Made by a program: the position numbers and the translations under genes | The notes under the pieces: model-generated | Seen by the model: the letters and a program-made list of their open reading frames with translations, nothing else | Database searches by the model: none | What the model was told of the DNA's origin: nothing | Shown: positions 977 through 64,000 of the stretch, one piece after another | Position numbering within the stretch: position 1 is the stretch's first letter | How the letters are laid out: each line of letters begins with the position of its first letter | Origin: Eledone cirrhosa | Lineage: Eukaryota | Assembly: GCA_964016885.1 (NCBI GenBank) | Contig: OZ024745.1 | Location: forward strand, 97,650,001 to 97,714,000 | DNA: 64,000 bases | Direction: 5' to 3'

Positions 977-2107
<1,131 letters not shown>

Positions 2108-2722
2108 TTCGACCCAGCAATCCCAAAATTAGAACTGAACCACCTGGATTTTAACGTACGGAATACATATCATCACACCGCTATTAGCTGTGAATCAGCC
2201 GACCGGTCACTAGATCATAAATCACTTAACATCTCTTTCACCCTCTCTCCCTGAAACCACATCAACCCCATTAAGACAAGACAACCAGCAAAACATTTAC
2301 CACACACACTTGTCAAACCTCCCTTCACCATCCACCCTTAGCCCTTGGGTCTCATACTAGTATCTCCAAATTAATCTCTAATTTATTGCTTTTTCTTCTA
2401 TCTGTCACTACCTCAGACTCTCTACACGTATCTGTGTATGTTTCGAATATGACTTTTCATGTTAGCACTAAATCCATCACAGCATCCTTATACGTACACT
2501 TACTCACCACCACCACTATCATATTCTGTACTTATGTGCTCTCACTTATCCTTATTTCCTTATATTTTTATTATTTTTCCATTTTCTTACTTTTTTACTG
2601 TATCTTTTTTCTTATCTTTTACTTTTTACATCTGTAACTTCTTTACCTATTTATCAAATATTTTATTATTGCTGTTATTGTTTTGATTTCTCTATATATA
2701 TCATGCCATGTATGAATTATTC

Positions 2723-2833
2723 GTATTCTGAGGATTTGGTCAGAGGTAAATAATGTAATGGAGATCGAGTGAGGCAACTTCGAGCGATTAGCAGCCTCTA
2801 GACTCACCTGATCAATGAAACAATTGTTAATAC
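2723..2833 (+). ncRNA. Type-I hammerhead ribozyme, family A, 64-nt loop II, in PLE 3' UTR
   Basis: gtatt-CTGAGGA-t-ttggtcag...ctgatcaa-t-GAAA-caattg-TT-aatac: helix I 5 bp, helix II 8 bp, palindromic helix III ACAATTGT. Confidence 0.75.
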
Positions 2834-3332
2834 CTGAAATAAAGCCCCTTGTTGTACAGCCAACCATATTACTATTCATTCTTTCACTATTATTACTCCA
2901 AGTATAACCTGCATAGGAATTCCCGCGAACTCGCTGCCTAATTATGGAAACATCTTGTTGAGTCAAACAAAGCCGTACGTTAAAACTATCCACGACGCAG
3001 AGTACTCCCAACATCTAACTGGATTACCTATAACGATAACTTGTTATCCCATGGATAACCATCATGTTGCTTGGTGTTTTTCCAACCTTCGGTTTGCTTT
3101 TCCTTCTTGTTGTTTACTTGTCTCACTCGCTTTACGCGTTTCACTTGTCCCAATAGCTTAGTTTAGTTATTGCTCGCACCAACCTGAGGTATCTGATTTT
3201 TAATGCGATGAAATACCAATGATGGTTGGCAAATCACTGATGAGGGACTAATTTTATAATATGTAATCCATGGGCAACCACGCAGTATTCCCCTCGCCTT
3301 GTTTTTCATATATATATATATATATATATATT

Positions 3333-3560
3333 AGTATCAGTGCTTTGAAATAACGATGTATGTATGAATGTATGTATAGTATATTTGATAATATACTGAA
3401 TGTTTATTTAAGAATATTTTGAAGACCATTCGCTATGAGTTTTAAAGTAGTGACTATGTGTTAGTGGTTATCAAGATTGCTTATCCCTCCGCTTCTGCCG
3501 AGACTTATCGAAGCTGGATTCTTATAGAATTCCAGTGATGTTTAAGACTGATTATTATAT
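3333..3560 (-). mobile_element. Degenerate relative of the 310/317-bp hammerhead units (families H/N)
   Basis: Shares ttttgaagacc..cgctat and attcttatagaatt blocks with 12591-13700 and 38770-39557; the ribozyme core is largely lost. Confidence 0.5.
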
Positions 3561-3568
3561 GTATGTAA

Positions 3569-3760
3569 GGGCGGTGAATTGGCAGTATTGGTAGAGGGTT
3601 GGACGCCATGCTTTCTAGCATAGTTACGTCCCTTTACAGTCTGAGTTCAAATCCCGCCGAGGTTAACTTTGCCTTTCATCCTTACGGGGTCGATAAAATA
3701 AAGTACCAGTAATGTATTGGGTAATTGCTGGCCTTGTGCCTAAAGTAGAAACAATTATTA
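3569..3760 (+). mobile_element. tRNA-derived SINE
   Basis: A-box TGGCAGTATTGG, B-box GAGTTCAAATCC, core ctttgcctttcatccttacggggtcgataaaataaagtaccag, tail gtagaaacaattatta; several copies in the window. Confidence 0.85.
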
Positions 3761-3764
3761 TATG

Positions 3765-3803
<39 letters not shown>

Positions 3804-3878
3804 ATATATATTGTTATGCTTTGGGAGGGTCATGTTGCCAATAAGAAACACACGCACCAGTTATATATATCATAGATT

Positions 3879-4318
3879 GAGTTATAAACTCCAAATAATC
3901 TTTTACAATTAAATAGCTCAAAGAAGGGAACCTTTCCGAGTCGTGTAATATAATTGGATATATGATGGGATGAACACAGATATAAGTTTACATGTGTTCC
4001 AATTGCAAATGACCAAGTTAGCTAACTCAGTCTTCTTAGATCCTTTGAAGTGAAAGGTACGAATTTTCCTGGATACCCGCAGATGAGCACAGGAATTCTG
4101 GCTTTCACTTAATAATTCTTGGGAAACATATTTTGGTCAGTCCAGGTATCAAAGGCTATTGCCCGATATATGTTTGTTATTTTTATTGATTTATTACTTT
4201 AAATCGAGTCAGGCAAACCATATTGTTTTAAATTAGTATTTTTTTCAACCTAGCTAACTTGGTAATTTGCAATTGGAACACATGTATAATTATATGTGTT
4301 CATCCCTCTCATATATCC

Positions 4319-4322
<4 letters not shown>
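3879..4322. mobile_element. Hammerhead-bearing unit, family B, with internal inversion
   Basis: About 3952-4024 is the inverted repeat of about 4251-4322; homologous to 18357-19408. Confidence 0.7.
4072..4150 (+). ncRNA. Type-I hammerhead, family B (U4A core CAGATGA), partly decayed
   Basis: gatacccg-CAGATGA-gca...tgg-GAAA-catattttggtcag-TC-caggtatc. Confidence 0.55.
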
Positions 4323-4396
<74 letters not shown>

Positions 4397-4534
4397 ATAA
4401 TAATGGAGCTGCGGCGTTGCAAATGGGTTACATATATATATATAATGGAAAAATTTGAACAGGGACGAAACAGAGAGGCAGTACAACGAATGTTTATTAA
4501 TTTCACGCTCTGGAGAGTGGGGTGTTGGTGGGGG

Positions 4535-4566
4535 ACGACGTTTCGGGCATAAGCCCTTCCTCAGGT
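4535..4566 (-). ncRNA. Minimal type-I hammerhead, family C
   Basis: Reverse complement ac-CTGAGGA-a-gggc-ttat-gccc-GAAA-cg-TC-gt; palindromic ACGT helix III; helix I only 2 bp. Confidence 0.65.
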
Positions 4567-4928
4567 GAGAAGTGTGTGGGAACAGAGTTCAAAGGGTGTG
4601 TAGGGGAGTAGTGGAGCGACATATAGCGAAAGGAAACGGTGCGAATGAAAAAATAAAAAATAAAGATAAAAATAAAAATAAAGCATGATCAAAATACAAG
4701 GAATGAGATAAATTTAAATATAAAGGCATGATCAAAATAAACTGAAATATATATATATATATATACTACCCTAAGTATTGAGTACTTTGGTGCGTTATGG
4801 TCCACCTGGTTCCTTACCACATTTCCTTCGTTATATATATATATATATATATAGGTTTATTCCGGGTTCAATCGGGGGGTAACTACAGTAAGTAAGGTAC
4901 TCAATACAAAGCAGAGTATAAATATTTA

Positions 4929-5014
4929 ATATAGAAAAGCTTCTACAGGACTAGAACTGTTCAATTCGTGATGATTTCTCACGAATGAAACAGTTCTAGT
5001 CCTGTAGAAGGTTT

Positions 5015-5021
<7 letters not shown>
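4929..5021. repeat. About 90-bp near-perfect palindrome containing a hammerhead remnant
   Basis: agaaaagcttctacaggactagaactgtt / aacagttctagtcctgtagaaggttttct; centre gTGATGA-t-ttc-tcac-gaa-t-GAAA. Confidence 0.7.
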
Positions 5022-5069
<48 letters not shown>

Positions 5070-5073
<4 letters not shown>

Positions 5074-5612
5074 TATGTACACGTACATACATATATGTAT
5101 ACAGACGTACAGTAGTATGTATATATATACATACATGCACACATATATATATGCACGTATGGACTCACCGAACAACTACTATAGTGCTCGGTGTGTCTGT
5201 AAACAAACACCCGGCCGATTAGCCCACTCGATATGCAAATTGGGCTACTCAGTCGTTAATATGCATAAGGTAAGTATATACGTTCAACAATCTGGCAGGA
5301 AGGTATACGTTGCTGACGATAGCTAATAAGCTTGAAACTAGTACAGCGTTCCTTTGTCAGTGTTGAACAAACGAGCAACGATGGTTGCTAGACACTACGG
5401 CTTAATACGGGATGTTTGTTTACAGACACACCGAGCATTATAGTAGATATTCGGTGAGTCCATACGTGCATATATATATATGTGTGCATGTATGTATATA
5501 TATATACATACTACTGTACGTCTGTATACATATATGTATGTACGTGTACATACTTATATTTAAGTATCAGCCGTACTAAGAGTGGGAAATGAAATTTCGT
5601 TTCATTTTTTCC

Positions 5613-5617
<5 letters not shown>
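5070..5617 (+). mobile_element. About 430-bp hammerhead unit, family D, with inverted 5' segment (PLE pLTR/retrozyme-like)
   Basis: 5070-5212 is the inverted repeat of about 5408-5556; homologous to 37375-38360; flanked by (TA)n. Confidence 0.75.
5307..5349 (+). ncRNA. Type-I hammerhead, family D
   Basis: acgttg-CTGACGA-t-agct-aata-agct-t-GAAA-ctag-TA-cagcgt. Confidence 0.85.
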
Positions 5618-5655
<38 letters not shown>

Positions 5656-5730
5656 GATCCGCTAAGGTGAAACAATTGTTCTCGGTATGGTGAACTAATT
5701 GTTGTGTTACTACTTCTATATATATATATA

Positions 5731-6312
5731 TGAGAATTGAAACCGCGCGGTAAGGGTAAATATAGTAAGTACAGTAAACTTTTTAAAATTTATTTTAAAA
5801 CTTTTTCTCTATTTGCTAAACCGTGATTATATATGTTCTGGCTCGTTAATTTATTAACCTGCCATAGAACCACATTGGCATACGGTTGAATAATACATGT
5901 GTCCCTATATGCATTTTTTGCACGTAGGAAAACATACTTTATTATTATTAATCTCCCCTAAGGTCGAGATAACATTTTGGTCGTTTTTACTGCTGCTATT
6001 TCTAGTGGCAGGACATTGACCTTTCCGCCCTTGCCTTCTATCTTTACACACGGCACTGGACAAGATTGTTTCCTTATACACTCTCATCCGGGAACAGTTC
6101 TGTATGGCGCCAGTTCGTGATTTGAACTCGGGAATTTTATATTCTCCGAGTGAGAAGAACCCTCTGACGAAATTCTCCTTCTCAATGGTGTTCCGCATGG
6201 ATTATCCATTTATTTTGAGACTTGAAACCGCGCAGTAAGGGTAAATATAGTAGGTACAGTAAACTTTTTAAAATTTATTTTAAAACTTTTTCTCTATTTG
6301 CTAAACCTTGAT

Positions 6313-6313
<1 letters not shown>
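5731..6313 (+). mobile_element. 485-bp partial-tandem hammerhead unit, family E
   Basis: GAAAccgcgc..aaacc.tgatta occurs at 5739 and 6224 (period 485); (TA)n on both sides. Confidence 0.75.
6159..6242 (+). ncRNA. Type-I hammerhead, family E, 39-nt loop II
   Basis: accct-CTGACGA-aattctc...gagactt (gagaatt in the copy at 5732)-GAAA-ccgcgcag (ccgcgcgg)-TA-agggt. Confidence 0.75.
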
Positions 6314-7333
<1,020 letters not shown>

Positions 7334-7336
<3 letters not shown>

Positions 7337-8031
7337 AGACGTAAAATTATAAAATTATAAAAATTAACTTACTTATAATTGTTCTGTATATAATTGTTCT
7401 GCATCCGCTTGCATTGAACCACAAAGTTACTAAGACAAAACCTATATATTTGCTAGCATAGGTATGCATCTGTATATATATATATTGGTAGATATACTAA
7501 TTCTTTATAATTATCTCCAAATTATTTTGTTGAGCAAAAATTTGCCAAAACTGCTACTATAGTTCATAATAATGGTTCGGCTACTGTCTTTTTAACACCC
7601 CATTCCTCACTGATTAACCTCGATGTCACGTGATTGATTCTTTTGAATTTGCCACCGACCAAGTAGGCAGTGATTTTTTCAATTTCTTGGAATTTACTCC
7701 ACGCTTGCTTTTTTCCATCCACTGAATTATTTTTGTATAAGTTCCCTGTGTCCACGCATCGCCTGGGAACTTCGCTGAGAACAGACTTCCTGATGACGAA
7801 AGGTTTCTCCATGCGTTCCATTCGGAAACCATATTTATTCCCTTTCAGAAACTAATTAGTTGGAGTGAAATTTTAGTAAGTAAGTTAATTTTTATAGTTT
7901 TCTTATTTTACGTCTTTCATATAATTGTTCTGCATCGCCTTGCATGGAACCACAAAGTTACTAAGACAAAACCTATATATTTGCTAGCATAGGTATGCAT
8001 CTGTATATATATGTTGGTAGATATACTAATT

Positions 8032-8036
<5 letters not shown>
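7334..8036 (+). mobile_element. About 530-bp partial-tandem hammerhead unit, family F, with short inverted 5' end
   Basis: ataattgttctgcatc..aattcttta occurs at about 7390 and 7922; 7338-7375 is inverted relative to about 7877-7914. Confidence 0.7.
7785..7866 (+). ncRNA. Type-I hammerhead, family F, 37-nt loop II
   Basis: acttc-CTGATGA-c-gaaagg...cctttc-a-GAAA-ctaattag-TT-ggagt. Confidence 0.75.
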
Positions 8037-8122
<86 letters not shown>

Positions 8123-8531
8123 ATAACTAGAAATTGATTAACATATAAATAAACATGAATAATAACAGGAGATAATTTTTACAAGTGTGTAAGCACACAT
8201 AGCTAGGTAGGTAACTAAATAAAGTTGACCAGAACTTCAAAAACAGATACCTTATAATATGATTAATCTTCCCTGTATATATTATATATTCCATTAAAGA
8301 AATATATTTCACCAATTAATCGAATGGTAAACCACGGATGCCGATACTTGGATTTTCAACAAGGAAGAAGTTTCAGCGATCTATGTTTACACTTCAAGTT
8401 CAAATCAGCGACTGGCCAGCAACACGTGCTGTATCTACTAGAAATACATACATCATACCAGCTTCGCCCCAGTGGCGTGAATAGGGTTATCGACAACTAG
8501 AAACAGCAGTCAAGTCCTTTCAACAGAGTTA

Positions 8532-8536
<5 letters not shown>

Positions 8537-8609
<73 letters not shown>

Positions 8610-8642
8610 GTATATATATATGTATATATATATGTATATATA

Positions 8643-8709
<67 letters not shown>

Positions 8710-8744
8710 GTATATATATATATGTATATATATATGTATATATA

Positions 8745-8801
<57 letters not shown>

Positions 8802-8914
8802 GTATATATATATATACACACACATATATATACATATATATATACATATATATATACATATATATATATATGTATATATATGTATATATATATGTATATA
8901 TATGTGTGTGTGTA

Positions 8915-8978
<64 letters not shown>
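8537..8978. repeat. (CT)n/(TA)n compound microsatellite
   Basis: Direct reading. Confidence 0.95.
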
Positions 8979-8980
<2 letters not shown>

Positions 8981-10040
8981 AACGTATGGGAGAAGACCGA
9001 ATGGTTACAGCGTTTGTCCAAATCGATTATAAACGATTTTATATATTTATATCATGATGCGAGTATTTAACTTATATAAACTGTATTAAGGTATTGTTGT
9101 ATTGATTTTATTGATGACATGGGTTCATTAATTACATATATATATTTGTTGAAAATATACAAATGAGTTTAATAATTATTTCTATTGTGAAAATTGGCAT
9201 ATATTTCATTGTTTTATAGATGAAACTGTGATTATTTTTTTCTTTATAACATTACCTAATATTACGCTCGAGTTAATAAATAAATAATTGAATATTAAAT
9301 CACGCGCTACTAATCACAAATACTTCAAAGCCAAATATTCATAAAAATTGATCAGTTTTGATTTACTTTTACGACATAACTAGAGATTAACACCAAAGTA
9401 TGTTTCGAAAGTAAAGTACAGTGTGGAAAACTGTGATCTAGGTTCAGTGGTCTGACCATATTTGCTAAAAGTAAGAGGCAGACGATAGATTCGGTCGTCT
9501 GCTGATTTTCTCCTTTGTGTAATATCAGTTGTTTGAGACAATCGTGTGGAAATCTCAATTTTATTATATCTGTAGAAGATATTCCCCTTTCCTTATTTCG
9601 TTAAGACCCTTAGGAAAGACATGATCAACAAAAAATCAATATATAGTAAAACTGAGTCAACCACTTACGGGTAGCTGCATCCTCCATTTGGTTTCGATTT
9701 CCGATTATTGTCCTTCCACTTCACTTACATCGTCAATGTTCTAGCAAAGACCATAGATATCACAAATTCAATTTCCTTTCTTAAATATAGGATTTTATCA
9801 AAGAATTCAATATTGATCAGACCTTTGGCTACCATAAACATTTCTTCTAATTCGTTTAAGTTCTTCCCTCACCCCTCTCCCACTTTCTCCCTCAGCTTTC
9901 TATATCTAATATTTCTTGTTCTGATAACGATTGAATTAGAAGCTGCCAGTCTTCAAGTTACATATTCAGTTTACAGAGGAGCCTCTATGCGGTTACTTGA
10001 ACTGCTAGATATAGAAGCTACATTTCTCTTAAATATCACT

Positions 10041-12157: not shown

Positions 12158-12279
12158 TCCACTGATGATTTATAAGTGCCCACCTACATATATTCCTACG
12201 GACTATGTGTAGGCTTCTACATAACCTGGACATTATTTTCCCAATTTGTAGAAAACTTATAATGAAACGATCGTTTGGA
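12158..12279 (+). ncRNA. Type-I hammerhead, family G, 77-nt branched loop II
   Basis: tcca-CTGATGA-t-ttataagt...acttataa-t-GAAA-cgatcg-TT-tgga; loop holds hairpins cctacata/tgtgtagg and ttctaca/tgtagaa. Confidence 0.75.
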
Positions 12280-12529: not shown

Positions 12530-12591
<62 letters not shown>

Positions 12592-12748
12592 TGGATTAAA
12601 TGCTCTGAAATAGCGATATATATGTGAAGATAGACATAGAATATTCGAAAATATTCTGTATGTTTATAATAAACATTTTGAAGACCTAATCGCTATAGAA
12701 TAGAATACGTCACGTATTACAATTAGATTCTCGATAAAAGCAAGGGAA

Positions 12749-12791
12749 GTAACCTACGCGTTTCATTCTTATTAGAAATCTTCAGGATTAC
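12749..12791 (-). ncRNA. Type-I hammerhead, family H, copy 1
   Basis: gtaatc-CTGAAGA-t-ttct-aata-agaa-t-GAAA-cgcg-TA-ggttac. Confidence 0.88.
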
Positions 12792-13058
12792 ATATCCAGT
12801 GCTTTTATCGAGAATGACACAGCTAGAGACTTATAGAATACTTAGCTGTGTACAGGAACTGGTTTGAAAGAGCGGTTGCCGGTCCGGCAGAAATTAGAAA
12901 TTGGATTAAATGCTCTGAAATAGCGATATATATGTGAAGATAGACATAGAATATTCGAAAATATTCTGTATGTTTATAATAAACATTTTGAAGACCTAAT
13001 CGCTATAGAATAGAATACGTCACGTATTACAATTAGATTCTCGATAAAAGCAAGGGAA

Positions 13059-13101
13059 GTAACCTACGCGTTTCATTCTTATTAGAAATCTTCAGGATTA
13101 C
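13059..13101 (-). ncRNA. Type-I hammerhead, family H, copy 2
   Basis: Identical to copy 1, 310 bp away. Confidence 0.88.
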
Positions 13102-13529
13102 ATATCCAGTGCTTTTATCGAGAATGACACAGCTAGAGACTTATAGAATACTTAGCTGTGTACAGGAACTGGTTTGAAAGAGCGGTTGCCGGTCCGGCAG
13201 AAATTAGAAATTGGATTAAATGCTCTGAAATAGCGATATATATGTGAAGATAGACATAGAATATTCGAAAATATTCGAAAATATCTAATTGTAATACGTG
13301 ACGTATTCTATTCTATAGCGATTAGGTCTTCAAAATGTTTATTATAAACATACAGAATATTTTCGAATATTCTATGTCTATCTTCACATATATATCGCTA
13401 TTTCAGAGCATTTAATCCAATTTCTAATTTCTGCCGGACCGGCAACCGCTCTTTCAAACCAGTTCCTGTACACAGCTAAGTATTCTATAAGTCTCTAGCT
13501 GTGTCATTCTCGATAAAAGCACTGGATAT

Positions 13530-13572
13530 GTAATCCTGAAGATTTCTAATAAGAATGAAACGCGTAGGTTAC
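13530..13572 (+). ncRNA. Type-I hammerhead, family H, inverted copy
   Basis: Identical motif on the + strand. Confidence 0.88.
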
Positions 13573-13762
13573 TTCCCTTGCTTTTATCGAGAATCTAATT
13601 GTAATACGTGACGTATTCTATTCTATAGCGATTAGGTCTTCAAAATGTTTATTATAAACATACAGAATATTTTCGAATATTCTATGTCTATCTTCACATA
13701 TATATATATATATATATACATATATATATTTATATATATATGTATATATATATATATATATA

Positions 13763-17999: not shown

Positions 18000-18004
<5 letters not shown>

Positions 18005-18108
18005 CGATGATTTGATCACAGACACACACTGTATTTAAGGTCGAGAGACGCAATTTCGAGTGATTAGCGGCCTTTAGACTCACCTGATCAATGAAACAAT
18101 TGTTAATA
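18000..18108 (+). ncRNA. Hammerhead family A, second copy (U4C)
   Basis: tatt-CCGATGA-t-ttgatca...tgatcaa-t-GAAA-caattg-TT-aata; homologous to 2723-2833. Confidence 0.6.
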
Positions 18109-18282
18109 CTGTAAATAAAACCCTTTTTGTACAGCCGACCATGTTCTTCACTCTTTCACTATATATATATCCCCCACCACCACCCCCACTCTCAAGCGTG
18201 AAACTAATAATAACATGTACTGCCTCTTCGCTACCACGCTTTTTGTTTTTTTGTTTTTTCGCTTTCTGTTTACCGTCTCAAC

Positions 18283-26220: not shown

Positions 26221-26800
26221 TATATGGTTCGTTGATTATTCAACGAATTCAGTTTTACAATAGATTAGAAACACTCGTCAGTATTTATCTGGAGTATCTA
26301 TATTATTCCTGCCACTACAGGAATTGATGATTCAAGTACCTTAGCGGTATGCCGCATATCCAATCTCTTATATATTTTATCTGATGAAAACGTACTGAAA
26401 CGCCATTGTACCTTTGAAATATGTATAATAAAATATATACTTTGGTTATGATATTTCTCATTTATTAATATTTTGAATAATATTATATATATATATATAT
26501 CATGAATCAAAACATATCAACATATCATATGATGAGAATTTTGTATTTCTCAATAAGCAAGCTCAATGCACTTTATCCAGAGCCATAATAACCAAATGAA
26601 AAAGATATATGTATATTCACCAATCTTATTTCTAGCGGAGTTATCGCCCACCTTGTTGATAACTATTTGCCTTGGGTTTAACGGGATTTCACCATGTGCT
26701 TCTAAGCATCACGGTCACTATGAACTTAGCTGTGGATAGTGGCAGGTATATTGATTTATTTACCATCTTCATCCTATATTTCCTTTAGAATGGTGAGACT

Positions 26801-27103: not shown

Positions 27104-27251
27104 ATACTTTGGGAGGGTCATGTTGCCAATAAGAAACACACGCACCAGTTGCTTTCACTTCAATTTATTATAATAAATTTATAATAAATTTATAAATTTA
27201 TAAATTTCTGGTTGGTTGGTTGGTTCCACAACCAGATAGTTGTTTATATAT

Positions 27252-27296
27252 AGTCATAGTTCTTTCGTCACACACTCTGTGACCTCTTCAGTGACT
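27252..27296 (-). ncRNA. Type-I hammerhead, family M, 200 nt downstream of the PLE endonuclease stop
   Basis: agtca-CTGAAGA-g-gtcac-agagtgt-gtgac-GAAA-gaac-TA-tgact. Confidence 0.85.
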
Positions 27297-27496: not shown

Positions 27497-28079
27497 TTAA
27501 TTGTAAGTTGTGATGTTGCTGTTCCACTCATATTTTCTATTTAATTTTGGTTGTAATTCTTTTATGTTTATTGCCTCTGTAATTTGTCTAAACATTGCGT
27601 CTTTTCTGTGTGTAGATTCTATTTTTATTTCTATGTTCTCTAATTTACTCTTGTGTTCTATTTTAGCATGTTGGTAGAGTACAGATGATTCTTTATTATC
27701 TTGAAGGTCTCGCCAGTGTTCATTTATCCGTTCCCCTACACTACGAGCTGTCTCACCTATGTACACTATATTTTTATCTCTACATTGTCCTTCAGTACAT
27801 CTTATGCTATACACTACATTTCTAGTTTTACAGTTAATATGGGGGCTTATTTTACAGGTTATACATTTCTTATCTATACATGAGGGTCTTTGAAAAGGGT
27901 ATGCCTTGCTAATAAGTGTTTTTACGGAGGTACCTTGTCTTTCTACTATCTTAATATTGAGTTTATGTTTATTTAGGGCGCTTCTAAATTTGTAAGCTAA
28001 TTCACCTCTAGGGGTTGTATCGATGAACATTACACTCTGGTATTTATTGCTATCATACCATGAGTTTATTCTATTAGCC
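27497..28079 (-). pseudogene. Penelope-like GIY-YIG endonuclease domain (Nematis-like), uninterrupted but 5'-truncated
   Basis: TP.GEL..IKIVER.G..PF..C..C..C..C..NVVY..C..C..YIGETARS..ER..EH..H..H..RQI.EA..I..LNRK.EWN. Confidence 0.88.
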
Positions 28080-28247
28080 GTATGCAGTTCTCTGGCTACA
28101 ATCAGAGAGATAAAATCAGAGTGTATAGAGGAGCCAGAACCAAATGGGGAAAAATGGTAAATAATGACATAAATGGGACCTGCCCCTTGTATAGGAGCAA
28201 ATTTTGGAATAGAATAGAAAGAACTAGGAACAAGGCTAATAGAATAA
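28080..28247 (+). pseudogene. Inverted upstream segment of the same PLE ORF
   Basis: MQFSGY..G.CPLYRS..W..KANRI joins in frame to ANRINSWY of the minus-strand ORF; 14-nt overlap ggctaatagaataa. Confidence 0.75.
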
Positions 28248-28252
28248 TGGAT

Positions 28253-28670
28253 CCCTTTTCCCCCTCGACAGATGCAGAGATCGTAATGTGATCTACCAGT
28301 GCAACCTGAGGACGGACACCTCCAACAAAGCTTATATAGATTAACCGCTTGTGACCTCAAGACCCGGCTCTACCAACACAGACATACTTTCCGAAACCCG
28401 GCCCGGCGTCACGCCACTACACTTTCGGGCCACATCTGGGACCTCAAAGATAATAATATAACCTACAATCTCACTTGGAGCTTACTGTCCAGAGCCAACT
28501 CTAACACGGGAGGACGCCGTCCGTGTAACTTATGCTCGGAGGAAACATTACAAATGTTGTTTTCGACGGACCAACTCCTAAACAAGAAAGACGAACTGGT
28601 AACTGCATGCAAACACAGATTGCGTAGGACTTACCTCGCCCTCAAACCCCATAATGACCCGGGGGAGTAG
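28253..28670 (+). pseudogene. Second Naiad-like PLE GIY-YIG fragment, frameshift near 28338
   Basis: CRDRNVIYQC..AYI / LT..LKTR..H..F..TTLSGHIWDLK..W..CNLCSEE..LLNKKDELV..CKH. Confidence 0.8.
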
Positions 28671-37576: not shown

Positions 37577-37619
37577 ACGATGTACTAGTTTCAAGCTTAT
37601 TAGCTATCGTCAGCATCGT
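37577..37619 (-). ncRNA. Type-I hammerhead, family D
   Basis: acgatg-CTGACGA-t-agct-aata-agct-t-GAAA-ctag-TA-catcgt. Confidence 0.87.
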
Positions 37620-38065: not shown

Positions 38066-38108
38066 ACGATGCTGACGATAGCTAATAAGCTTGAAACTAG
38101 TACATCGT
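38066..38108 (+). ncRNA. Type-I hammerhead, family D
   Basis: Same motif on the + strand. Confidence 0.87.
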
Positions 38109-53139: not shown

Positions 53140-56100
53140 CTACAGAACAATGTAGAGAGAAGGCCCATTTACACGGGCCATTCTCGCTTCTTTCACCCAC
53201 CTTTCATAAAACTGTCTGGGACCAAGCACTTCTCTCTCCATCCTGATTCTTCTTCCGAAGTGGTATCGGAAGAAGTAAACCAGGTGATGGCCGGAGAGAA
53301 AGTCACCCGACCTCAGACCTTTCAGGCGCGTCCACCACACAACCTCTTTCATCATGGCTATTACGCACAGAAAGACCGCCTCTGCTTCATTTCTGAAGGG
53401 AGGAGGCGGCTTGATGTTCACCACAGACTCGGCGGTTAATCGAATCGGCGCCACACGCGACAGCAGTCGTTCGACGTAGCCCCACAGATCGGCAACGCCC
53501 GGGCAGTGTACCAGTGCATGCGCAACGGTTTCCTCGTCGCGCACGCATCTGGGACAGATCTTTTTCGCGGGATCCCTGCCCGGGCGCCCGTGTCTGTAGA
53601 GCTTTTCTCGAACGGGCAGAGCCCCCCGGTAACACTGCCAGGCTAGGGACCTCTGGAAGTTGTCCATGGGTCCCGGGCCGAAAGTTCTACCGAACAGGCT
53701 GGCCAGTTCGTCCTCCTCCATGCCTAGCGACTCTCCAAGGGTGTCGTCGCCCCTGCTAGCCACCAACCCTCTATAGAATGTCGAGGTGGATTCTCCACTG
53801 ACAGTCGGGTCCGCTTGCCAGATAGCCGTGAGCGCCTGGGCACACTCAGTGTGCCAGTTGCCCAGTTTTCTCGGTCTTTGCTTCACCCAGGATTGCAGTT
53901 CGGTGAGCGAGACGAGCTGTGGGAAGGCTCGCCTCACAAACGGGGCCCACACCGGCTGACCGTTGAGGAATACCTGTAGATGCCGTAGCCTCAATGCGTG
54001 CCTACGCATCAACAGCCACGGCATACCCAGCCCTCCTTTCGAAGGGTGCTGGCAGCAGATGGATCTCCTCACCATGGGAGGCCGCTTCTTCCAGAGGAAC
54101 TGGAAGAGCATGCGTTCCATGATGGTGAGCTTTTCCTTGGGGCAAGGCACGACGGTCAGGCGGCAGTAGATGACGGACGCTATGTAAGCGTTCGTCACCT
54201 CCGCCCGACCTTTCAGTGATAGTTTGCACTTGGCCCACTTCTGGGTCAGCGCAAACACCCTGCTCGTCACCTCGCCCCAATTCTTCTCCACCTGGAGGTC
54301 CGGTCCGAACCAGACCCCGAGCAGCTTCACCGGGCCCTCCGTCCACCGCCCGACGACACCGTCTAACGGCATCGGTTTGCCCCTCCACGTTCCGAGTTGC
54401 AAACCGACTGACTTGTCCTGGTTCAGCTTAGCCCCCGTCAGCCTTTCGTATTCCTCCAGTAGGGTGGCGATCGCCCCGATTTCCGAGGCGTCCGCCACCA
54501 TTACTGTTACGTCGTCGGCATAGGCCGAGACCGCTTTGTGCAATCCCGGTTCCAGGGGTATGCCCCGCAGCAACTCCAACTTCCGCAGCAGTGGCTCGAG
54601 AGTCAATACGTACAGAAGGGAGGAGAGGGGGCACCCCTGTCTGATGGATCGGGTGATTTGAAACGGCTCCGAGAGGTAGCCGTTTACTTTAATCCTAGAG
54701 TAGATGTTGCCACTGTGCATGGCAGAAATCCAGCCCCTGAAAACGGGTCCGAAGCCCGCCGCCGCTAGCACTGCATCCAGGTAACCATGGTCGACCCTAT
54801 CGAACGCCTTAGATTGATCCAAGTTGATCAGGGCCCCACCAAAGCCGGGTTCGTAGCCAACCCTCTCTATGATGTATCGCATGAGGTGGAGGTTGTCGTG
54901 AATGGACCTGGACGGGATAGCGCATGTCTGCGCGTCTCCCACCAAACCACCCACCACAAGCGCCAACCTCTTCGCCAACACCTTGGCCAAAATCTGTAAC
55001 TCTGCATTCAGCAGAGTTATGGGCCTAAAGTTACTTAAGTCGTCCCCCTTGCTCTCGTCCTTCCTCACTAGCGTGACCACGCCCTTGGTCACAGAACAGG
55101 GAATTCTCCCGTTCTGTTGCCAGTTGCAATAGACAGCCTCGAGGAGTTCGGAGAACAAGACCGGCATAGCTAAATAAAGTTCGTATGGTAGACCATCGAG
55201 ACCCGGGGATTTGCGTCTGCTGCATTGGCTGAGCGCTTCCCCGATTTCAGTGGCTGTGATTGGCCCTTCGCAGCACTCCGCTTCGCCGCTCGAAAGACGC
55301 GGTAGACCGTCGAGGTATGGACCGAAGTCCACATCCCCGTCCGGCCCCCCGCCACCTCCGAACAGTCGAGCAAAGTGCCTTTGAAAGGTCTCGCACATTC
55401 GCTCAGGTTCAAGGATCACCCGTCCATCCTGGTCTCGCAAAGACCGAATGGTGGATTTAATCCCACTCTTGGCTTCTGTCACGCGGGCCCAGCTAACAGC
55501 TTTGGTCCCCTCGTTTCCTAAAGCACGTATTTTACTTCGGACAACGCAGCCTTCGTGCTTCGCGTCAAAGAACTGGCTCAATGCCGTTCTCGTCGCTAAC
55601 ACTCTGGCTACGTCTCCGCTCCTAATCGCCTCTTCTAGTTTATCTGTTAACTCCCTTTCCCTCCTATTTCTATTCGCCGCTAGTTCCTTACTGTAACCTA
55701 TCGAACTTACTCTAATCTCTCTCTTTAGAGATATCCACCACCTACTGTTGACGATCGCTCCCGTCAACCGCATCTTAACTAAGCTACTAATCCGGTTTCT
55801 GTAATCTTTCTTTGTCGGTAAGGACAAGTTCATCTTCCAGTAACCGGGACCCTGTCTATGCGTTCTATCAAGGTTGACCACGCAGGTCACTAATTTGTGA
55901 TCTGAATAGCCAACCATGATCAGTTCTGGACAACTAAATACGTCCCTATCCTTACTCCTAACTAAAAACCTATCTAGGTACGATCTAGATTGTCCACTGC
56001 GGTTTGCCCAGGTCCAGGTTGGCGCAGTTGGACAATCTAGTCGAAATCTATCGACCAGGTCGAATCGATCGAGTAACCCCTTGAGGCTGCTACACCCCCC

Positions 56101-56572
56101 TCTATCGGGACATGCCCCTGCATAGTCCCAACGCGCATCTAGGATTCCATTCCAGTCCCCCACTAAAAGCAGGGAACGCGACGTTCCTAGAAAAGTCTCC
56201 AGACGTTGGAAGAAGTCGGCTCTCTCCGCCCCGAAGGGAGCATAAAGACCGACCAGTCTGAAAGCCCCGCCTTCACCACCTCCGACGTCCAGCACCAGTA
56301 ATCGACCCCCCGGGTCCGAGTGAACAATCTGTACGTCGAGAGTCAGACGTTTATCCAGCAGTACGGCAACTCCCCCCCCCCCCGCCTCCGGGTTGACAGA
56401 GAGATGCGTGCATCTCAAAGTCATCGAAGGCGGGCGCCAGCTGTCTCACGCTGCTGATCCGACTCTCGCAAACAACCATCACATCTATACTTTGTGACCT
56501 GAGGTCACTTAGAAGCTTTGCTTGCTTCCAAGCTGAGCTCAGGCCACGCGCGTTCAAACAGCCAACTCTCAA
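53140..56572 (-). pseudogene. Tx1 ORF2 (APE endonuclease, RT, Zn finger); one frameshift in a G/C homopolymer at about 56372-56383
   Basis: CLNARGL..CES / GDWN, YLDRF, SDH; KSPGLDGLP, FRPITLLN, LDQSKAFDRV, RQGCPLS, YADD; CPRC..ET..H...C. Confidence 0.92.
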
Positions 56573-56577
56573 TTGAT

Positions 56578-58444
56578 CTATTTTGGTGTTGAAAGTGAAG
56601 AAAGAAAAGCACTTACCTCTCCGGGTTGCGTAATTTCCATGGCATCAGGTGTGTTGGGTGGAGGGATGTTTTGTGGTGGTGTGGGGGTACACGTGTGTGG
56701 TGGGGTTGGGGTATTTGGAGTTGTGTCAGGGAGAGGGGCGGTTATGGGGAAATCTTTCAAGAGGACGCGATTCAACGGTTTTAAACAGGGGGGGGGGCTC
56801 ACGTCCCGTCTAAATTGTTCTTTTAAGGAACGATAAAGGTCCAGAGGGACTTTTATCATTTTTAAATGGGTGAAGTTCTCTGTTGAGATAAAGTTTGGCC
56901 CTTCGGTCTGCACCATAGGGTTATTGTTTATTAATTTAACCAGTTTTTTGTTTTCTTTATTTATATATGTGTATTGCAACGTCTTTTTTTGTGATGCTGT
57001 CAATGTTTCGGAGAGGGGAGGCGCAGATTTATTTTTGTTTGTTGAGGGTGGGGTGTTTTTGATTGGAGTTGGTGTTTGTGTGTGGGTTATTTGTGGTGTG
57101 CTGGGTGTGTGTTTTCTTTTTTTTTCTTTTAACTTGTCTGAAGGCTTCTCCTCCTTCTTCTTCAGAAGTTGGGGGAAACTCTTCAGCGCTAGGTGGGAGG
57201 GACGTGTTGTGTGGTTGTTTTTTTTTTGCGGGAGGGGTAGATTTGTTACTGTTTTTTTTATTATTTGTTTGGAATGGGTTTTGTGGTGGTGGTGGTGGTA
57301 ATGTTTGTGTCGTGCTTGTGGTTGGTGATGGTGGTGGTGATGTTTGTGTTGTGGTTGGTGGTGGTGATTTTTGTGTCGTGCTTGTGTTTGGTGCTGGTGG
57401 TGGTGATGTTTGTGTTGTGTTTGTGGTTGGTGGTGTCTGTATTTTGTTTGCTGTGTGTGGTATTAGTGTATTTTTGGAGGTGGGTGGTGCTGGTGTACTG
57501 TTTGTGGTGGGTGTGGGCAATAGTCCTTTTTGGGGGATACGTTTCGGGCAGTTAGCTTTAACGTGTCCCCTTTCCATGCATAAATAGCATGCTGGTCTTC
57601 TCCCCTCTACAATTATGTCTATTGGGGTAAGGTCATCCAGCCAGATGCGATCCGGGATTTGTGCTATTATTTCGGGCCTCATTTGGACTATTATGTCGAG
57701 GCTCATTCCCAGGAACGCATCTCCAGTTGCCTTCCCCATTGACAGCATAGTGTCTTCGCCCATATCAATGAAGCCAGCAATAGCCCACCAGAAGTCCATT
57801 GTGGGCAGCATTGTTTTTACTTTTACTCTCTGTGTTCTTCTACCCATGTAGGAGGGATAGAAGCTATATGTTGTCGACGAGAGTGGGCTTAGGGAAAGCT
57901 TCTCCGCCGTTTCTTTGTCTCTTGTTAGGACCGAAATGCTGCCATAGAGTCGGTCCTTTCGTATGAAGAGAATATTCTTCATATAGTCTTTTAGGACTAA
58001 CTCTATTTCCATTTGGCTGGGCTGTGCTGGCTTTCTTGTCTGGTTCAGTATAGTTCTGTATATAACTGTGTTTTCTGCTCTGGCTTTCTTGAATTCTGGG
58101 GGGGAGTTAATGGAAAACATTCCGTTCTCCCCCAAAACAATATGTTTCTTTGCTTCGGCCAGTTTTTCTCTGGCGGCAGTTAGGTCAATTGGTGTGTATG
58201 TAATGGATTGCTTTGTTTTCTGGGCGAAAGTTGCCCTGTCGTTATTTGTATTATTTTCTGTTTGTTTGTTTTCTGTTTGCTCATTTTCCTTAACATTTGT
58301 TTTTTCATTTTGTTTGTTTGTTTCAATGTCTAATTTTGTTGTAATTATTTTTTGTTCTTCAGACTTGGGGGGCGTGGCAGAGCTAATGGCAGACATGTCT
58401 GCCATCTTTTCCGCCATGCTGCCAAGAAAGAAATTTTTCGGCAA
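56578..58444 (-). pseudogene. Tx1 ORF1 (gag-like, CCHC knuckle), broken near 57029
   Basis: CYLCMERGHVKANC; P/T-rich linker; the C-terminal part at 56578-57003 is homologous to element B ORF1. Confidence 0.85.
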
Positions 58445-58880
58445 AAATAGATATTTATTTTACCCCCTAAAAAGGGGGTAAATGCAAAAATGTTTCCCTA
58501 AATAACAGGGGTTAGTGTTCCAAATGTGTTGCACTAAAAAATTTATCCGGTACTTACAATAGTAAGGGTAAATCCCGATGGAATAGCGGAGCCGATGCGA
58601 AGCGTGTCTTACTCTATCAAGATAGATAGATAGATAGATAGAGAGATTTCTTTATTAGCCACAAGGGCGCAACAAGAAAGGGGACAATACAAAGACATGC
58701 CGGGGATTTTACATACAGTCGTGTAAAAAATATAAAAACAAACAATTTCAACAATCGAAATCCCCAATAGGGGGGATGCGCCACAAATGGGTTGTTTAAT
58801 ACCCCGTCGATAGAACAACCCTCAACTCAAGGAGCGTGTTGTGCAAGTGCTCCTTTCTTCCTTTTGCTCTCTTCCTCAAC

Positions 58881-61800
58881 CTACAGGCTTATAAACAGAG
58901 AAGGCCCAATCACTCGGGCCATTTTCGCTTCATTCACCCACCTTTCAGTAAATTTACTGGGGTGCAGTGCCTCTCTCTCCACCCTGATTCTCCTTCTAAA
59001 GTGATACTTAAAGAAGGGAATCAATTGTTGTCCGGAGAGAAAGGCATCTGTCCTCAGTCCTCTCAACCTCGTCCACCATATAACTTCTTTCACCATAGCC
59101 ACCGTACAGAGGAAAACCGCCTCTCTTTCGTTTTTGAAAGAGTCTGGCGGTTTGATCCTTACTATGGACTCGGCAGTCAACTGTATTTGTCCCATACGCG
59201 ACAGCAGTTGTTCTGCATAGTTCCACAGGTCGCTTACGCCCGGGCAGTGTACAATTACGTGCAGAACTGTTTCAATGTCCTGCGCACATCTTGGACACGT
59301 CTTCTTGGAAGGATCCCTGCTGGGGCGTCCGTGCCTGTAGATCTTGCCACGAACCGGTAGAGCTCCTCGGTAGCACTGCCAGGCCAGGGACCTCTGGAAG
59401 TTGTCCATAGGTCCCGGGCGGAAAGTCCTACCAAACATACTGGTGAGCTCATCGTCTTCGACGCCCAGAGTCTCTCCGAGCACGTCGTCGCCCTTGTAAC
59501 GTACAATCCCTCTATAGAATGTCGAAGTGGAGTCTCCACTGATTGCTGCGCCCGCTTGCCAGAGGACTGTGAGCGCCTGAGCGCATTCAATGTGCCAGGC
59601 GCCCATCGTTTTCGGTCTTTTCTTCACCCAGGACTGCAGCTCCGTTAGCGAGACGAGCTGTGGGAAAGCCTGTCTCACAAACGGTGCCCACACCGGTTGG
59701 GGGTCGGTGAGGAATACCTGGAGATGCCGCAGCCTCAGCGCATGTTTGCGCATCATCAGCCACGGCATTCCCAGCCCTCCGTTGGAAGGGTGCTGACAGC
59801 AGACGGATCTCCTCACCAGCGGAGCCTGCTTCTTCCACAGAAACTGGAAGAGCATGCGTTCCATCTTGGCGAGGTGTTCACGGGGACAAGGCACGACAGT
59901 CAAGCGGTAGTAGATGACGGACGCTATGAAAGTGTTCGCCACCTCCGCTCGACCTTTCAAGGACAGTTTGCACTCTGCCCACTTCTGAGTGAGTGCAAAC
60001 ACTTTGGCCGTGACCTCGTTCCAGTTTTTCTCCGCCTGGAGGTCTGGACCGAACCAGACCCCGAGCAATTTCACCGGTCCGTCCGTCCAGCGTCCAACGA
60101 CGCTGTCGGATGTCATCGGTTTGCCTCTCCACGTACCGAGTTGCAAACCGACAGACTTGTCTGGGTTTAGTTTTGCTCCCGTCAGCGTTTCGTATTCTTT
60201 CAGTATGTTGCCGATCACCCCGATTTCCGAGGTGCTCGACACCATTACTGTCACGTCGTCGGCATAAGCCGACGCCGCTTTGCGCAGTCCCGGTTCTAGG
60301 GGGATGCCCTGCAACAGCTCCAATTTCCGCAGTAGTGGCTCTAGAGTCAATACATACAGAATGGAGGAGAGAGGGCATCCCTGTCGAATGGAACGCGTGA
60401 TTGCGAACGGCTCCGATAGGTAGCCGTTCACCTTGACCCTCGAGCAGATGCTGGTGTGCATCGCCTCGATCCATCCTCTGAACACGGGACCGAAACCGGC
60501 CGCCTTGAGAACCGCTTCCAAGTATCGATGGTCGACCCTATCGAATGCCTTAGACTGATCCAAGTTGATCAGAGCCCCACCGAAGCCGGGTTTACTACCC
60601 ACCCTCTCTATGATGTATCGCATGAGGTGGAGGTTGTCGTGTATGGACCTGGTCGGGATTGCATACGTTTGCGCTTTCCCTACCAGGTTCTCGACGACAA
60701 GCGCCAACCTCGTCGCTAGCACCTTGGCCAAAATCTTTAACTCTGTGTTGAGCAGAGTTATGGGCCTGAAGTTGTTAATTTCGTCCCCCTTGTTCTCGTC
60801 TTTCCAGATCAGCGTTACTACGCCCTTGCCTGCAGAACTGGGAATTCTCCCGTTCTGCTGCCAATTGCAGTAGACGGCTTCGAGGACGCCAGAGAACAAG
60901 TCCGGCATGCCTATGTAAAATTCGTAGGGTAGACCATCTAGACCGGGTGACTTGCGTTTCCCGCAGCGGCCCAGAGCGTCCCGTATCTCAGTGTCCGTGA
61001 TCGGTCTTTCGCAGAACTCGGCGTCCGTGTTCGAGAGACGCGGCAGGCCGTCGAGGTATGAACTAAAGTCCATTGCCCCGTTCGGCTCACCGTCGTTCTG
61101 CTCAAACAGTCGCGCAAAGTGCCGCTGAAAGGCCGCGCACATTTGCTTGGGGTCAAGTAGCACGCGTCCGTTTTGGTCTTTCAAAGACCGAATCGTGGAC
61201 TTGTTGCCACTTTTTGCCTCCGCCACTCGGGCCCAGCTGACAGCTTTCGCTCCTTCGTTTCCTAGAGCACGTGTTTTGCTTCTGACCACGCAGCCTTCGT
61301 GTTTCGCATCGAAGAACTGGTCCAGTGCCGTTCTCGACGCTAACACTCTAGCCGCGTTGCCACTTCTAAGTGCCTCCTCTACCTTGGCTACTAGTTCTCT
61401 TTCTATTCTGTTTTTCTCTAAGGCTAACTCTCTGCTATACCCTATCGATTCTATTCTAATTGCTTTCTTGAGAGAGTACCACCATCTATTGTTGACGATG
61501 GCTCCCGTTAACTGTTGCTTGACTAGTTTACTTATCCGTTCACTGTAAGCTTTACGTGCCGGCAACGACACGTTCAGCTTCCAGTATCCGGGACCCTGTC
61601 TATGTATTCTATCACGGTTGACTAAGCAGACGACTAACTTCTGATCTGAATAGGCAACCATGTGCATTCGTGGACAGCTTAACATATCCTTGTCCCTTTC
61701 TCTAATGAAGAACCTATCTAAATACGATCTAGATGTCCCACTGCGGTTTACCCACGTCCACTGTGGTGCAGTCGGGAAATCCAGTCGATACCTATCGGCC

Positions 61801-62327
61801 AGTTGGAATTGGCCGATTAAAGTTTTGAGGCTGTTGCACCCCGCTCTACTGGGACATGCTCCCACATAGTCCCATCGTGCATCTAGGATACCATTCCAGT
61901 CCCCCACTAAAAGTAAGGAGCGAGACGTTCCCAGAAAAGACTCTAGACGCTTAAAGAAGTCTGGCCGTGATTGCGATTGCCCGGTCGGGGCATAAACGGC
62001 CACCAGTCTGAAGGCTCCACCTCCGATACTGTTCACGTCTAGGACTACCAGTCTACCCTCCGGGTCCAAGTGTACTTGCTGTACTCCGACGTCCAGGTTC
62101 TTCCGAAACATAACAGCCACTCCACCTCCACCTCCTGGCTGACAGAGAGATGCGTAGATCTCAAAGTCGTCGAAGATGGGGGTTAGTTGCTGCCTGTTGT
62201 GGATTCTGGACTCGGTGATGGCTATCACATCCATACTGTGTGACCTAAGGTCGTTTAAAAGTTGGCCCTGTTTCCAGGGCATCCCTAGGCCACGCACATT
62301 CACGGTTCCAACTCGTAAACCAGCCAT
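58881..62327 (-). CDS. Tx1 ORF2, uninterrupted 1148 aa from MAGLRVG (APE, RT, Zn finger); SDH changed to SDQ
   Basis: TVNVRGL, ITES, GDWN, YLDRF, YSDQ, YADD, CPRC..H..HC. Confidence 0.92.
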   Translation of the reverse strand: MAGLRVGTVNVRGLGMPWKQGQLLNDLRSHSMDVIAITESRIHNRQQLTPIFDDFEIYASLCQPGGGGGVAVMFRKNLDVGVQQVHLDPEGRLVVLDVNSIGGGAFRLVAVYAPTGQSQSRPDFFKRLESFLGTSRSLLLVGDWNGILDARWDYVGACPSRAGCNSLKTLIGQFQLADRYRLDFPTAPQWTWVNRSGTSRSYLDRFFIRERDKDMLSCPRMHMVAYSDQKLVVCLVNRDRIHRQGPGYWKLNVSLPARKAYSERISKLVKQQLTGAIVNNRWWYSLKKAIRIESIGYSRELALEKNRIERELVAKVEEALRSGNAARVLASRTALDQFFDAKHEGCVVRSKTRALGNEGAKAVSWARVAEAKSGNKSTIRSLKDQNGRVLLDPKQMCAAFQRHFARLFEQNDGEPNGAMDFSSYLDGLPRLSNTDAEFCERPITDTEIRDALGRCGKRKSPGLDGLPYEFYIGMPDLFSGVLEAVYCNWQQNGRIPSSAGKGVVTLIWKDENKGDEINNFRPITLLNTELKILAKVLATRLALVVENLVGKAQTYAIPTRSIHDNLHLMRYIIERVGSKPGFGGALINLDQSKAFDRVDHRYLEAVLKAAGFGPVFRGWIEAMHTSICSRVKVNGYLSEPFAITRSIRQGCPLSSILYVLTLEPLLRKLELLQGIPLEPGLRKAASAYADDVTVMVSSTSEIGVIGNILKEYETLTGAKLNPDKSVGLQLGTWRGKPMTSDSVVGRWTDGPVKLLGVWFGPDLQAEKNWNEVTAKVFALTQKWAECKLSLKGRAEVANTFIASVIYYRLTVVPCPREHLAKMERMLFQFLWKKQAPLVRRSVCCQHPSNGGLGMPWLMMRKHALRLRHLQVFLTDPQPVWAPFVRQAFPQLVSLTELQSWVKKRPKTMGAWHIECAQALTVLWQAGAAISGDSTSTFYRGIVRYKGDDVLGETLGVEDDELTSMFGRTFRPGPMDNFQRSLAWQCYRGALPVRGKIYRHGRPSRDPSKKTCPRCAQDIETVLHVIVHCPGVSDLWNYAEQLLSRMGQIQLTAESIVRIKPPDSFKNEREAVFLCTVAMVKEVIWWTRLRGLRTDAFLSGQQLIPFFKYHFRRRIRVEREALHPSKFTERWVNEAKMARVIGPSLFISL

Positions 62328-63906: not shown

Positions 63907-64000
63907 TTTCTTTTTTTGTGTGATGTTGTTGTTAATAATGATGTTATCGTTGTTGGAAATTTTATGTGTAGATGTATCTGTAGAGTTGTTGATGTCTTTT

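Follow-up and report, generated by a model that had tools for sequence, protein, structure and literature searches.

Organization of the locus

The window is the whole stretch of DNA analyzed, 64,000 nucleotides of the forward strand of Eledone cirrhosa contig OZ024745.1 (positions 97,650,001 to 97,714,000), and all positions below are those of the window. It contains a PLE fragment followed by a ribozyme motif on the same strand. The features of this locus and of a short second copy are as follows.

1080..1760 (+): PLE ORF, Hydra-clade, 5'-truncated; end of the RT thumb (WFNP) and linker up to CNC; matches positions 451-556 of the Hydra-type profile (E 4e-22)
1691..2107 (+): C-terminal GIY-YIG endonuclease, Hydra type, in a different frame; E 1.5e-30
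2108..2722 (+): 3' UTR or upstream part of the pseudo-LTR; multi-copy, with depth in all bins
2723..2833 (+): type I hammerhead motif; helix III palindromic, dimer predicted to be necessary
2723-2727/2829-2833 (+): helix I, 5 bp
2728-2734 (+): hammerhead core CTGAGGA, from descriptor scans
2735/2816 (+): U·U pair at the base of helix II
2736-2743/2808-2815 (+): helix II, 8 bp, including one G·U
2744-2807 (+): loop II, 64 nt, with a predicted internal hairpin
2817-2820 (+): GAAA
2820-2827 (+): helix III, palindromic
2828 (+): N17 (U2828), which ends the GUU triplet; predicted cleavage site after U2828
2834..2890 (+): tail; 2890 is the first of the common family ends, and (TA)n comes after it in copy 2 as well as in other copies
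2891..3052 (+): stretch up to the second of these ends, 3052, which also borders on (TA)n elsewhere in the family; putative 5' UTR of a tandem unit, with the decayed start of its ORF
18000..18162 (+): short second copy (copy 2), flanked by (TA)n runs; comprises the tail and the hammerhead, in whose core U4 is changed to C

The hammerhead motif and its second copy

Sequence inspection and descriptor scans identified a complete type I hammerhead at 2723-2833 (+). The CUGANGA, GAAA and NUH parts of the core and helices I-III are all present in this copy (copy 1). A preliminary description, made from the letters of the DNA, had proposed a large-loop hammerhead here about 620 nt downstream of a GIY-YIG stop codon on the same strand. 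Both points are borne out, with the stop at 2105-2107 and a spacing of 616 nt. A large-loop descriptor gave four matches in the window, compared with 0.02 expected per 128 kb in 200 Markov simulations, and the 3' half of the motif (26 nt) gave two matches, compared with zero in 100 shuffles. The folding energy was unremarkable (z -0.81 and -0.02). Rfam reported no hammerhead in 2600-3100, and none was present among the 150 listed of its 190 window matches. The helix II arm at 2808-2815 holds a self-complementary hexamer, from which intermolecular pairing could follow.

Copy 2 aligns with copy 1 at 80.8% identity (2724-2890 with 18000-18162, E 1e-38), and its hammerhead (18000-18109) does so without gaps over 110 nt. 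It starts exactly at helix I, directly after (TA)n, and ends at the equivalent of 2890. An uninterrupted run of 35 identical nt covers the 3' arm of helix II, GAAA, helix III and helix I. The preliminary description had stated that this copy keeps helix II, with a G·U changed to A-U, and the palindromic helix III, while the 5' part of the loop diverges. The G·U to A-U change, the intact palindrome and the more diverged 5' half of the loop (11 of 32 positions, compared with 4 of 32 in the 3' half) were all found, but helix II is not fully kept, as its eighth pair is lost. The helix covariation data consist of two copies with a single helix II change, which is one-sided and not compensatory. Changed sites made up 4 of 46 hammerhead positions and 15 of 64 loop positions, a difference that is not significant (Fisher p 0.07). 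The core of copy 2 reads CCGATGA, that is, U4 is changed to C, and such a change in a hammerhead core is harmful.

Clade of the upstream element

Craig et al. 2021 (PMC8557442) define Hydra elements by a C-terminal endonuclease, a CxCX5C linker, the absence of CCHH, (TA)n targets and universal hammerheads. For Naiad elements the defining features in that paper are an N-terminal endonuclease that contains CCHH and the absence of a canonical hammerhead. Further marks lie in the RT: RWK and DKT for Hydra, DKA and an IFD for Naiad.

The ORF at 1080..1760 begins at a (CA)n/(TA)n run and lacks the RT core. An RT thumb with WFNP is read from 1296, followed by CNC, a frameshift, and the endonuclease up to the stop. 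The linker cysteines are CNC at 1686-1694 and C at 1706, with the frameshift between them. Other copies (in 5 and 9 contigs, and in 17 of 50 and 10 of 35 reads) carry 4 extra bases at 1705, which places five codons between the linker cysteines (CxCX5C). In the endonuclease CCHH is absent, and only one Cys lies between the VY and YIG strands. Of the CxxC and CxH that flank the conserved E and N in Hydra elements, the former is present as CRLC and the latter has decayed to SMH in copy 1. The Hydra-type profile (alignment A2) contains 53 relatives out of a list of 120 that are of full-length type. None of the 150 best relatives of the endonuclease shows the CCHH pattern. Seven of them keep an RT motif, which lies before the CxC linker in six, after it in none and is not callable in one. 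The best match, P0121 (41% over the endonuclease), has matches to RW[KR] and DK[TS]. In addition, the thumb and endonuclease motifs agree by eye with the Hydra rows of the published alignment (PMC8557442). Both copies start at microsatellites and the family ends enter (TA)n, in line with the (TA)n preference of Hydra elements.

Judged by these sequence features, the element is a Hydra-clade PLE and not a Naiad, and the RT core is absent from this copy. The Naiad-like assignment of the preliminary description fails: the thumb precedes a C-terminal endonuclease, the stop follows the endonuclease, the linker is of the CxC..C type and there is no CCHH. A hammerhead in a Naiad would have been more surprising. 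The main surprise is gone because Hydra elements have already been reported with hammerheads, and a link between motif and element is therefore expected.

Pfam returned nothing for the three Hydra-type fragments of the window, a protein search with the thumb region gave no match, and viral contigs held neither a protein relative nor a motif match. Two 20-mer matches in prokaryote genomes were rejected as chance, and neither extends.

Family structure and linkage of the motif to the element

Two contig sets from one sample (X1 and X2) and two sets of RAD reads (X5 and X6) were mapped onto 1085-3100, and all 30 bins were covered. Summed contig depth in X1 was about 1,100-9,400 over the ORF and UTR, 18,900 at 2717-2784, 60,000-106,000 at 2785-3056 and 3,100 beyond; summed contig depth is not equal to copy number, but the pattern points to many short 3' copies. 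At 2785-3056 the depth is at least roughly tenfold that over the body, so most copies of the motif appear to be without an ORF. Ends at 3052 followed by (TA)n were found in 63 and 66 contigs and in 294 and 391 reads, and ends at 2890 followed by (TA)n in 209 and 156 reads. This is a multi-copy family with (TA)n-flanked ends.

Contigs from other loci carry joints from 2688 to 2805 and from 2688 to 2882. Inverted joints link 2435, 2450 and 2625 with 2842, 2903 and 2945, as expected of the inverted, 5'-truncated copies of PLEs. No other hammerhead core was found between the stop and the motif (2107-2722), and no contig spanning the two was present among the records listed, which are the smaller part of the total. 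The 3' hammerhead of a Hydra element is found at 2723-2833, with its linkage given by joints in other copies and not by one spanning record; the linkage of motif and ORF is well supported, though not closed. The preliminary description had tied the motif to an autonomous PLE clade. Its tie to the upstream PLE ORF stands, by position, strand, the lack of another core in 2107-2722 and the joints in other copies, but the copy itself is not autonomous, being 5'-truncated and frameshifted. The spacing of 616 nt lies beyond the range of 44-511 nt seen in 33 related cases.

It is unlikely that the motif belongs to an element of its own (about 2720-3052), non-autonomous and retrozyme- or SINE-like, that targets (TA)n and was inserted into the 3' UTR of this Hydra element. 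Such an insertion would agree with the much higher depth over the 3' module, but a 3'-biased depth is predicted by 5' truncation alone. The exact start of copy 2 at helix I after (TA)n and a short TA run at 2692-2701 are also in its favor, as is the finding that few of the RAD reads ending at 2825 appear to reach into 2649-2716 (depth 15, compared with about 200-300). However, a non-microsatellite version of 2691-2710 is present on another contig, joined to both 2688 and 2805, and the UTR and the module are linked by several inverted joints. Furthermore, the region between the stop and 2722, where Hydra elements carry their hammerhead, holds no other core.

A decayed ORF start is seen at 3003 (YS), 175 nt past the cut site; for 20 of the 24 related cases this distance is 168-207 nt. 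Its position fits, but an ATG is absent and the sequence support is weak. Pile-ups of read ends at 2822/2825 in the RAD libraries were rejected as evidence of ribozyme cleavage, as they are DNA restriction cuts at the AATT of helix III; the same is seen at 2918/2921.

Size of loop II

The related loci used for comparison were the best 80 of 413 confirmed relatives, on metagenome contigs, and are nearest to the first sequence of the profile and not to the window family. The descriptor used on them allowed up to 250 nt inside helix II and took the best match per core under a small length penalty. A sense-strand hammerhead of the same style was found in 46 of these 80 loci, with 54 motifs in total. 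Loop II measures 3-11 nt in the 54 motifs, compared with 64 nt in copy 1, and the U·U at the base of helix II is present in 23 of them; this pair is also known from PMC3088659 and PMC7229834. In File S2 of PMC8557442 loop II is 3-10 nt in the 26 Hydra rows, and the largest loops, about 35 and 29 nt, belong to the spike-moss elements PLE-X1_sMoe and PLE-X1_sTam. These resemble the window motif as PLE hammerheads with an enlarged loop II, but the elements are EN-minus and their loops are about half as long. The 64-nt loop II is therefore the new feature, well outside both the related loci and the published Hydra table. A literature search found no paper on large-loop hammerheads in Hydra-clade PLEs, though Lünse et al. 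2017 or the figure supplements of PMC4209133 may show similar variants. No mention of hammerheads was found in passages of PMC13282606.

Two unrelated large-loop hammerheads are present in the window, at 12158-12279 (77-nt loop) and 7785-7866 (37 nt), with the same build and no ORF attached. The tails of the 2723 and 12158 families were no more similar than shuffles (86 of 500). The helix III motifs of the three window families had no match in the Craig supplement (PMC8557442), where line breaks could mask one, and those octopus Naiad 3' ends that were compared by eye showed no resemblance to the window motifs.

The most likely reading of the large loop is that of an expansion which the ribozyme tolerates: it is not part of the core, and it seems to change more rapidly than the core and helices do. 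It is improbable that several PLE families of the host independently gained loop II inserts of 37-77 nt, missed by standard descriptors, that act as a control module, a short intron or a competing fold that would hold the ribozyme inactive as long as helix II is not restored by splicing or by the binding of a protein.

A related explanation, that loop II is itself a short spliceosomal intron (2746-2801, 56 nt) whose removal leaves the 8-nt loop of an ordinary Hydra hammerhead and switches the ribozyme on, is very doubtful. The stretch has an AG|GTAAAT donor and a YAG acceptor, and its removal keeps helix II whole with the 8-nt loop; 0.5% of loop shuffles permit such a removal with a donor of this kind. 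A comparable removal is possible in the unrelated 12158 motif, and PLEs retain introns in the pseudo-LTR, with that of Drosophila virilis ending at helix I (PMC4209133). However, the test was post hoc and some GT...YAG removal is possible in 20% of shuffles. The GT...AG stretch is present in copy 1 and not in copy 2, and no such removal is possible in copy 2 or in the 7785 motif. The pyrimidine tract of the acceptor is poor, the 12158 donor is weak, and among the 15 joints listed (27 further; all from DNA data) such a skip is absent.

Proposed function

The motif is likely the pseudo-LTR ribozyme of its family: a type I hammerhead whose loop II measures 64 nt, placed 616 nt past the C-terminal endonuclease in a truncated PLE of the Hydra clade. 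Pairing of two copies via the palindromic helix III is predicted to lead to cleavage of tandem transcripts after U2828. By analogy with known PLE biology, transcripts would run through tandem units, two copies would pair through the helix III palindrome so that the ribozyme works as a dimer, and the protein of the element would probably be required by the ribozyme. The tandem transcript would then be cut after 2828, as for other PLE hammerheads. Target-primed reverse transcription at (TA)n may begin downstream of the motif, from 2890 or 3052, and would usually halt early, which would account for numerous short copies that carry the hammerhead, 18000-18162 among them. Published work describes low, dimer-dependent cleavage for other PLE hammerheads (PMC4209133; review PMC6765202). 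Also described are cleavage aided by protein, reverse transcription that initiates internally at a point downstream of the ribozyme, and in vitro insertion of an anole PLE with no need of hammerhead cleavage (PMC11167929).

In one read variant the triplet is GUC and not GUU. Copy 1 is predicted to misfold: its helix II would lose to a competing helix that is 1.5 kcal/mol better, with a modeled pair probability of about 0.3 for the domain alone and 0.01 for the whole motif, while that of copy 2 reaches up to 0.99. It is nevertheless very improbable that the motif is a decayed relic without cleavage activity, inactivated by the loop insertion in a family that spread without it; the predicted misfolding of copy 1, the core change in copy 2, the non-significant contrast in conservation between hammerhead and loop, and the dispensability of cleavage in vitro for another PLE (PMC11167929) would agree with this, but the 35-nt identical run is kept between copies about 19% diverged, the read variant preserves NUH, and complete cores are kept around large loops in three unrelated families.

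Comparison with known systems

The closest system is the Hydra clade, including Hydra-1_Obim (PMC8557442), which shares the C-terminal GIY-YIG, CxCX5C, the lack of CCHH, the WFNP thumb and the (TA)n flanks. Its hammerheads are likewise 3' and type I; their helix III is palindromic, and many have U·U at the base of helix II. The window element differs in its 64-nt loop II (compared with 3-10 nt), its longer 3' UTR and its longer linker, and the Hydra-1_Obim hammerhead, compared by eye, has another sequence and an 8-nt loop. The minimal PLE hammerheads of Cervera and de la Peña 2014 (PMC4209133) also have a helix I of 4-5 bp, a helix II of 7-8 bp, an extra base past the core, a palindromic helix III and a predicted dimer, whereas the window motif has U·U instead of G10.1-C11.1 and a large loop II predicted to be structured. 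Non-LTR retrozymes (PMC7229834; bioRxiv 10.64898/2026.07.22.740005) are similar in being short, non-coding and repeated and in carrying a type I hammerhead, and are thought to be derived from the PLE pseudo-LTR. The two window copies differ in being single and not in tandem arrays. The Naiad clade (PMC8557442) shares the PLE type, GIY-YIG and the (TA)n preference, and differs in its N-terminal endonuclease with CCHH, its CX2-5CxxC linker and its lack of a canonical hammerhead.

Published fallback searches for hammerhead cores limited the spacer to 7-17 nt and noted half cores at 35-50 nt (PMC8557442). PLE families scored as hammerhead-less may hide large-loop forms because of this limit, and three unrelated large-loop hammerheads lie within one 64-kb window. 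Compact and expanded ribozymes in one clade also form a natural pair with which to test regulation of cleavage by loop II.

Other hammerheads and elements in the window

The hammerhead at 12158-12279 (+) is type I, with its 77-nt loop predicted as two hairpins, a U·U base, a palindromic helix III and GUU. It sits in a unit of roughly 400 nt between (TA)n runs, and its helix II probability is up to 1.0. Its helix II arm at 12255-12262 likewise holds a self-complementary hexamer, so that pairing between molecules is possible. The motif at 7785-7866 (+) represents a third type I family, in a unit with direct repeats about 530 nt apart and an inverted arm (7340-8043). A hammerhead-like motif at 26369-26439 (+) has a 12-bp helix I, a weak 3-bp helix II and a 22-nt loop.

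Compact hammerheads are also present. Near-identical 310-nt tandem units with a long inverted copy at 12585-13700, a young retrozyme-like or pseudo-LTR array, carry them at 12749-12791 (-), 13059-13101 (-) and 13530-13572 (+). A further compact family occurs in short repeats at 5307-5349 (+), 37577-37619 (-) and 38066-38108 (+), with an inverted pair at 37.4-38.3 kb.

A second Hydra-type endonuclease fragment lies at 28287-28670 (+) (E 1.6e-26), and the 650 nt after it hold no hammerhead core within one mismatch. Back to back with it is a canonical-clade PLE fragment at 27497-28369 (-), which has two cysteines inside GIY-YIG and a weak Pfam match; a compact hammerhead near 27250-27296 (-) lies about 200 nt past its stop. 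Lastly, long LINE-like ORFs (an endonuclease-RT ORF2 and an ORF1), which we take to be L1/Tx1-like, are located at 53140-56445 (+), 57029-58459 (-), 58881-62444 (-) and 62245-63999 (-).
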